Made by a program: the position numbers and the translations under genes
Shown: positions 2,494 to 3,000 of the stretch, in pieces
Layout: every line of letters starts with the position of its first letter
How positions within the stretch are numbered: position 1 is the first letter of the stretch
The notes under the pieces: generated by a model
What the model was told of the DNA's origin: nothing
What the model saw: only the letters and a program-made list of their open reading frames with translations
Databases searched by the model: none
IMG/VR virus record: IMGVR_UViG_2693429677_000015
Strand: one strand, 5' to 3'
DNA from: a virus
Lineage: Duplodnaviria; Heunggongvirae; Uroviricota; Caudoviricetes
Length of the DNA stretch: 36,705 bases

Positions 2494-2670
2494 ATAATCC
2501 GCCTCCTTTGGCCCTCTACTAGCTGACATTTGTAACAAAACATTTTGATTTTATCAGGCTCTTTATTGATATGTGTCAATTTATTAGCTGGTATAGAGTG
2601 AGACAGGATGCCTTATCGACCTTACCCTGGCAACTGATTGACGGGGGATTACTCCCCCGTCGCGGTTTCC

Positions 2671-2811
2671 TTACTGCTTACACTGTAAGAACGCCGCAAA
2701 CTCCGCTCCCCAGAAGCTCATCCGTATTTCACACAGCGAACCGTGCAGCATCCAGATGATGAGGATTGCCGTCACGCAGAACGTGATGGCCATAAGCGAT
2801 TTTTGCGACAT
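2671..2811 (-). CDS. hok: Hok/Gef-family type I toxin (46 aa), not in the ORF track
   Basis: MSQKSLMAITFCVTAILIIWMLHGSLCEIRMSFWGAEFAAFLQCKQ: N-terminal TM helix, SLCEIR and E-x-AAFL-x-CK motifs as in HokA/Hok/Gef; AAGGAGG 7 nt upstream of the ATG; stable stem-loop GACGGGGG-N6-CCCCCGTC (2640-2661) just 3' of the stop. Confidence 0.7.
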   Translation of the reverse strand: MSQKSLMAITFCVTAILIIWMLHGSLCEIRMSFWGAEFAAFLQCKQ

Positions 2812-3000
2812 AGCGCTTGCCTCCTTAGTGGAGAGGCGCTAACCTATCACTTGCGAAGGTAGATATGTTAGGGCCTCGGGTTAACATTAAAGTTGACTCG
2901 GGGCCTTTCCACATCCGGCCTTCGGGTATTCCCTCCAGCCATCAGCCGAAAGGCACCCGCGCGAATTCTAGCCTGGTTTTTTCCCTTGTTTCAATCCGTT
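2812..3000 (-). promoter_or_regulatory. Predicted hok mRNA leader / mok-sok control region
   Basis: GC-rich, highly self-complementary non-coding sequence upstream of hok with GATAG...AAGGAGG arrangement reminiscent of the R1 hok leader; sok antisense RNA would lie on the plus strand here; boundaries not determined. Confidence 0.3.

Follow-up and report, generated by a model that had tools for sequence, protein, structure and literature searches.

Does a 46-codon open reading frame lying close to one end of a phage genome encode a toxin of the hok/gef family, and if so, which of the RNA elements that control such toxins accompany it? The question was raised by a stretch of 36,705 nucleotides deposited as IMG/VR record IMGVR_UViG_2693429677_000015, the whole of which is referred to here as the window. 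A sequence-only reading of this DNA had proposed an unannotated hok/gef-family type I toxin locus on the minus strand, encoded by a frame (2671..2811) that an ORF track restricted to at least 60 aa had missed. We found the 46-codon frame at this position, and the assignment to the family held: the encoded protein scored above the Pfam cutoff, HokA was its best NCBIfam model, the mRNA carried a covarying tac-fbi fold-back, and the antisense unit was collinear with sokC and sokB. The locus lies within a prophage. [quoted passage not shown]

By inspection, the predicted protein (MSQKSLMAITFCVTAILIIWMLHGSLCEIRMSFWGAEFAAFLQCKQ) contains hydrophobic residues at about positions 6-23 followed by GSLCEIR and E-F-AAFL-Q-CK, in agreement with the transmembrane helix and the SLCEIR and E-x-AAFL-x-CK motifs that had been described for it. 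Comparison with Hok/Gef family models, which had been suggested as a check, gave a match to Pfam PF01848 (HOK_GEF) of 30.2 bits against a gathering score of 22 (E = 3.5e-7), in which residues 7-44 aligned with positions 5-42 of the 42-position profile. The best NCBIfam model was HokA (NF007290), for which the score of 33.3 bits fell far below the equivalog cutoff of 89, and the 46-aa protein is HokA-like, not HokA proper. In BLASTP comparisons, it shared 43% identity over the full length with K-12 HokA (YP_026229.1), 39% across 31 residues with R1 Hok, and 27-30% with HokB and HokC. All seven residues that are more than 80% conserved among 1,264 Hok peptides (M1, C16, T18, L30, C31, E32 and E41 in logo numbering; bioRxiv 10.1101/2025.08.07.668861) were found in the ORF, as M1, C12, T14, L26, C27, E28 and E37. 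HokA, of the hokA/sokA system, is the closest characterised protein; SLCE(I/L), AAFL-x-CK and directly encoded cysteines (here C27 and C44) are common to both, whereas HokA has 50 aa rather than 46 and the window copy is prophage-borne. Y-to-C RNA editing has been described for hokB-E (bioRxiv 10.1101/2025.08.07.668861). Because both cysteines are encoded directly in the window, as in HokA, such editing is not needed here.

A frame of this size might also have arisen by chance in structured non-coding DNA, such as a phage regulatory or att-proximal region, with a merely coincidental resemblance to Hok. The ORF is very short, and its NCBIfam score and the Rfam score described below are both under the curated cutoffs. 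However, the Pfam match exceeds its gathering score, the identity to HokA extends over the full length, 17 of 19 relatives keep the ORF at 46 codons even at identities as low as 59%, and the locus is collinear with the curated hokB/sokB and hokC/sokC and with R1-type loci. A chance origin is thereby effectively refuted. Variability at the three codon positions of hok was 30/17/32, a weak sign of coding constraint, as can be expected where a structured RNA also encodes a short transmembrane peptide. The plus-strand ORF at 2571..2759 (62 aa) had been described as the antisense shadow of the toxin gene. Its start lies outside the conserved block, a Pfam search with it returned zero family matches, and antisense ORFs were not conserved in the relatives, so "shadow" is a fair description.

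The genomic setting was derived from the flk-pdxB region of prophage-free E. coli genomes, whose match to the window stops at about 1117. The flk match had at least 90% identity in all 5,426 of the 5,426 complete E. coli genomes and at least 95% in all except 68 records. These matches indicate that the host is E. coli or a very close relative and that the junction lies at about 1117; judged by them, the prophage site is between flk and pdxB of E. coli. The hok gene is located about 1.5 kb inward of this prophage end, and three cargo ORFs stand between it and the junction, namely a gene for a Zn-ribbon membrane protein and two ORFs of the VasI/TagO-like kind, all within low-GC DNA (38-42%). The earlier description of the locus as being at the prophage-chromosome junction is thus correct only approximately. 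Baseplate, tail-fibre and tail genes were found from 3639 onward, and the far end of the window carries genes for an integrase, Cox, replication gene A (gpA) and a repressor-like HTH protein. By its gene content, the element is a complete P2-like prophage in which hok is terminal (right-end) accessory cargo. In a Salmonella relative, the hok gene comes immediately after gpD and ogr, which is an equivalent slot, and hok genes have been reported to be approximately four-fold enriched in prophages.

Several other features of this prophage were recorded alongside. The VasI/TagO-like cargo (1264-2156, minus strand) comprises two ORFs of 198 aa and 93 aa, each with a Pfam VasI match; it likewise forms two ORFs in E. 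coli RIVM_C019217 and is one 297-aa gene in phage 500465-2. The pair could have arisen through a frameshift or a stop, or the split could be genuine, and a type VI secretion accessory domain is odd as phage cargo. A perfect inverted repeat of 18 nt, with 4 nt in the loop (AGATAACACAAAGCCCGT / ACGGGCTTTGTGTTATCT), occupies 1195-1234, about 80 nt inward of the prophage end, and has a related copy at 1080-1093; it may act as a terminator or have a connection with the att site. The interval of about 640 nt from the hok promoter to the first tail or baseplate gene (2995-3638) is without a convincing ORF and gave zero matches in an Rfam search; it contains a plus-strand terminator-like hairpin at 3075-3092, and more than 1,000 E. 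coli genomes were >90% identical over the searched stretch 2600-3400. In the early region of the P2-like prophage (31437-31634, minus strand), the C4 antisense RNA (RF01695, 84 bits, 31437-31524) adjoins the isrK Hfq-binding RNA (RF01394, 66.6 bits, 31560-31634). Both matches are above their gathering scores, and the pair is a P1/P7-type immunity RNA module inside a P2-like genome.

A scan of 2450-3250 for sigma-70-like promoters yielded a single site, the hok promoter (2965..2994, minus strand), which has a -35 element TTGAAA (2994..2989), an 18-nt spacer and a -10 element TAGAAT (2970..2965), matches the consensus at 10 of 12 positions, and has a predicted start at about 2958. The Rfam model RF01794, named "sok antitoxin (CssrC)", matched 2958..2800 over model positions 1-157 with 46.4 bits, below its gathering score of 59 but with a significant E-value (1.5e-8), and the match begins exactly at the predicted start. 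Because it lies on the hok-sense strand and because the model consensus ends with an SD-like AAGG followed by AUG, RF01794 describes the hok leader and not the antisense RNA. The predicted full-length hok mRNA (2603..2958, minus strand) is about 356 nt long, its 5′ end being taken from the promoter and its 3′ end from the limit of conservation and the fbi pairing. Conservation among the relatives extends from the -10 hexamer to 3-6 nt past fbi.

The hok mRNA folded with a minimum free energy of -159.7 kcal/mol (2958..2595; z = -6.9). In the predicted fold, the 5′-most 15 nt (2958..2944) pair with 2620..2606, 3′ of the stop codon, which constitutes the tac-fbi fold-back. The tac element (GGGUGCCUU; 2950..2958, minus strand) forms the 5′ end of the mRNA within a paired segment that reaches to about 2944, and its partner fbi (AAGGCAUCC, or AAGGCACCC in most relatives; 2606..2614, minus strand) lies within a segment that reaches to about 2620. 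When the 3′ end was removed in silico, tac refolded with a ucb-like segment at about 2940..2924 into a local hairpin, and GAAGG became paired with CCUUC; the tac/ucb hairpin was also predicted in nascent RNAs of 45, 100 and 150 nt. This in silico switch and the GAAGG-CCUUC pairing match the R1 model (PMC9841398).

To evaluate the fold across relatives, we aligned 19 loci from E. coli, E. albertii, Salmonella, Klebsiella, Citrobacter, metagenomes and four phages; an alignment-based search had yielded seven loci, and others were added from protein-encoding contigs and from phage or genome matches. The RNAalifold consensus contained 71 pairs, and 97.1% of the cells were standard pairs, as against 37-42% when the pairing partners were slid by 1-3 columns. 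Compensatory pairs numbered 16, compared with 2-8 in the slid controls, and none of 500 shuffles reached the observed values; these covariation counts come from a small sample of mutually related sequences. Helix 1 of the fold-back was paired in 96.8% of cases in the 19 relatives, and in helix 2, which adjoins tac (columns 82-85/440-443), four of four pairs covaried. Of the RNA folding and covariance search that had been suggested, the tac-fbi part gave support, whereas the Rfam match remained short of its threshold.

A GC-rich stem-loop just 3′ of the stop codon had also been described, and it was found at 2640..2661 on the minus strand (GACGGGGG/CCCCCGTC; GACGGGGGAGUAAUCCCCCGUC), where it starts 10 nt past the stop and forms the perfect hairpin GACGGGGGAGTAATCCCCCGTC. 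Five of the nine pairs of this hairpin (helix 12) covaried. We also considered it as a terminator and rejected this reading, as the terminator scan called it on the plus strand only, with a poor tail. Because the hok strand has no U-run after it, the hairpin is read as the counterpart of the R1 stem-loop that, in the R1 model, follows the stop codon and forms the 3′ end of the processed hok mRNA (PMC9841398). By this analogy, it likely marks the 3′ end of the processed, translatable mRNA in the window as well. The scan of 2450-3250 predicted no intrinsic terminator 3′ of fbi on the hok strand, which makes the 3′ end of the mRNA uncertain. The minus-strand interval from fbi to the Zn-ribbon gene (2493-2605) is likewise without a predicted intrinsic terminator; the Zn-ribbon gene has its ATG at 2493 (the RefSeq start) and an AAGGAGG Shine-Dalgarno (SD) sequence, and read-through of the hok transcript into this gene is possible.

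The strong SD site that had been noted for hok is UAAGGAGG (2820..2827, minus strand), 8 nt 5′ of the ATG. It is held by an upstream anti-SD, CCUCUCC, in a 29-nt hairpin (2840..2812, -12.9 kcal/mol) that was present in full-length and truncated folds alike, and the helix flanking the SD (columns 197-201/222-226) was 98.9% paired in the relatives.

The sequence-only reading had expected a Sok-type antisense RNA and a mok-like leader within 2812-3000, but had not delimited them. The leader and a predicted Sok could both be delimited here, whereas a canonical mok was absent. The putative Sok promoter (2817..2845, plus strand) consists of a -35 element TTGCCT (2817-2822), which overlaps the complement of the hok SD, a 17-nt spacer, and a -10 element TAACCT (2840-2845). 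The latter matches three of six consensus positions and is weak, and the promoter was not called in the strict scan; the -10 hexamer is constant across the relatives, apart from TATCCT in two. The predicted Sok RNA (about 2852..2910, plus strand) is about 59 nt long and comprises a 5′ tail of about 20 nt, a hairpin at 2872-2905 and UUUCC, with a 3′ end anywhere in 2908-2914. Its fold had a free energy of -26.6 kcal/mol, the hairpin being extended to 16 bp by flanking pairs, and the 81-nt Sok region gave z = -5.5. The curated K-12 sokC (59 nt) has TTGACC, 17 nt and CACTCT with a start 7 nt on, and sokB (57 nt) has TTGCCG, 17 nt and TAAGAT; the predicted Sok of the window has the hairpin sequence GGCCTCGG...CTCGGGGC in common with both, and two of the six consensus pairs of the Sok hairpin (helix 5) covaried. 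This collinearity of promoter, spacing, start and hairpin with sokC and sokB places Sok at about 2852..2910, and its ends, positioned by homology with the two K-12 genes, should be regarded as predicted.

The mok ATG of hokB and hokC precedes the hok ATG by 57-58 nt and comes directly after the GAGG of the hairpin. At this position, the window has AUA, with no ATG, GTG or TTG there, and the relatives likewise had no start. A candidate mok-like leader ORF of 29 codons was found at 2825..2914 (minus strand), with its ATG at 2914..2912, GAAGG 4 nt upstream, and a UAA (2827..2825) inside the hok SD, and a second leader ATG at 2942 opens a 24-codon ORF. These starts lie 103 and 131 nt upstream of hok, and both ORFs end before hok. 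The equivalent of ATG-2914 opens 79 codons in E. albertii and 60, 21 and 19 codons in three E. coli loci (L027-L029), and that of ATG-2942 opens a 70-codon mok-like ORF overlapping hok in phage Shae_phiSM (L003, 1660-1930 region). Small indels shift the leader frames among loci with nearly identical Hok, the outcomes including, besides the 70 codons of Shae_phiSM, 60 in SC418 and 19-31 in further relatives. Neither leader ATG was present in the Salmonella and Klebsiella relatives. Because frame and length vary in this way, the leader peptide is not conserved, and a conserved mok starting at the ATG at either -103 or -131 was rejected. The authors of the Hok survey also found Mok hard to define (bioRxiv 10.1101/2025.08.07.668861).

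In R1, Hok synthesis requires translation of mok only up to the hok SD (PMC9841398), and the 29-codon leader ORF of the window reaches that SD. By analogy, any leader ORF that reaches the anti-SD arm could serve. With neither a canonical mok start nor a conserved leader ORF, the model is at its weakest in the coupling step. We raise, as a tentative suggestion, that the 46-residue HokA-like subfamily, which occurs in P2-like and Stx phages and on Salmonella and Klebsiella chromosomes, may have dropped the canonical mok frame. Short leader ORFs in any frame might then be sufficient as long as they extend to the anti-SD hairpin, or leader translation might not be required at all, and the target of Sok would be the body of the leader, not its ribosome-binding site.

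The same observations bear on whether the locus is a decayed or silent remnant, in which the ORF and the RNA structure persist while the toxin is not made as the mok start is lost, similar to the K-12 chromosomal hok loci that are considered inactive. The missing canonical mok AUG, the shifts in leader frame and length among near-identical loci, and the dependence of R1 Hok synthesis on mok translation to the hok SD would all fit such decay, as would reports that chromosomal hokA, hokB and hokC show no post-segregational killing, as cited in the Hok survey (bioRxiv 10.1101/2025.08.07.668861). On the other hand, the window retains an intact hok ORF together with both promoters, tac, fbi and every helix, and compensatory conservation in E. 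coli, Salmonella, Klebsiella, Citrobacter and several phage lineages is not expected of decaying loci. Each examined relative of the E. coli clade has at least one leader ORF that stops no more than about 10-20 nt short of the anti-SD arm or continues past it. The window locus is also free of IS insertions, unlike K-12 hokA, whose leader is cut by IS150, and hokC; these two loci were not usable as RNA comparators because IS elements cut them. In addition, 42 of 45 diverse Hok peptides assayed were toxic (bioRxiv 10.1101/2025.08.07.668861). We therefore consider a remnant improbable and retain the reading of an intact hok/sok module.

With the archetypal hok/sok (parB) of plasmid R1, this module shares the order of its parts, namely the promoter, tac, the Sok-target hairpin with GAGG, the SD, hok, the GC hairpin after the stop, and fbi. 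As in R1, the antisense -35 element overlaps the hok SD, and the predicted Sok is about 60 nt long and ends in a long hairpin. The R1-type plasmid locus that we examined had the same fold-back and the GC hairpin GGCGGGCGCAGGCCCGCC after the stop. The two differ in that the leader is about 147 nt in the window, whereas in the R1-type locus GGCGCUU is found about 168 nt upstream of the hok AUG; in that R1 mok has 70 codons and starts about 58 nt before hok, where the window has AUA; and in that R1-type loci have a terminator after fbi, which the window locus lacks. R1 hok/sok resides on a conjugative plasmid, in contrast to the prophage location in the window.

By analogy with R1, we propose that the constitutive promoter at 2994..2965 would produce an mRNA of about 356 nt, in which pairing of tac at the 5′ end with the 3′ fbi would keep the mRNA inert. 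Slow 3′ trimming to the GC hairpin at 2661..2640 would take off fbi, upon which the 5′ end would refold and expose the leader. Ribosomes on a short leader ORF would then open the anti-SD/SD hairpin, making the strong hok SD accessible and allowing synthesis of the 46-residue membrane peptide, which is presumed to act by depolarising the inner membrane. The Sok RNA of about 59 nt would pair with the leader, block its translation and lead to cleavage by RNase III, so that the toxin would be made only upon depletion of Sok.

[quoted passage not shown] HokW has 51 aa and is 44% identical to R1 Hok, and its phage is lambdoid, not P2-like. Labels of the type "MokW-like host killing" in phage records suggested orthology with Sp5 HokW, which was rejected as HokW, with its 51 aa, is a different paralogue; on the 46-aa gene, such a label is a family name and no evidence of orthology.

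The locus proved to be widespread in public records. More than 700 public contigs already encode the exact 46-aa protein, under the names "Hok/Gef family protein", "HokA" and "Prophage host toxic membrane protein" (C. rodentium D2TSG6). E. coli RIVM_C019217 is 99.5% identical across 2300-3400 and carries the RefSeq gene WP_032201456.1, whose product differs in one residue. The hok stretch matched 1,694 of the 5,426 complete E. coli genomes, and further carriers were the Peduoviridae phages P88, 500465-2 and Shae_phiSM, Oslovirus Stx phages and 34 plasmids. Shae_phiSM (GenBank OR565851), an induced C. rodentium phage with a circular genome, encodes the identical protein at L003 1660..1800, where no feature was deposited. 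The gene is thus unannotated, as had been claimed, in the ORF track of at least 60 aa and in a few phage records, but not in RefSeq.

Among the database matches, OR565851 labels the Zn-ribbon gene neighbouring hok as tagO and the gpD-like gene as ogr. Hok copies 96% identical to that of the window appeared in a Planococcaceae MAG and a Vagococcus sp. assembly, and a copy of 72% identity in a Xanthomonas pisi assembly (L005, L006, L009 set); all of these are most likely enterobacterial contamination. Two Salmonella enterica loci (L018 1201-1831 and L019 1201-1835) contain tandem 46-aa hok genes about 490 nt apart, each with its own complete leader and fbi.

The locus is an intact, prophage-borne copy of the well-known hok/sok module. 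Hundreds of public genomes already carry an annotation for the same protein, which makes the finding correct but unremarkable, with little significance beyond annotation. It illustrates that length-filtered ORF tracks miss small type I toxin genes, as do some deposited phage records, including that of Shae_phiSM, and it gives precise positions for the RNA elements in one prophage copy of hok/sok. The variable leader ORFs are the sole departure from known hok/sok and a minor point, of concern to specialists in hok regulation. If the suggestion of a mok-independent subfamily is true, this subfamily would represent a variant control logic within the hok family. For the prophage itself, possible roles would include retention, assistance of lysis, or phage exclusion; the example of hokW-sokW suggests that the module might help with prophage retention or with lysis.
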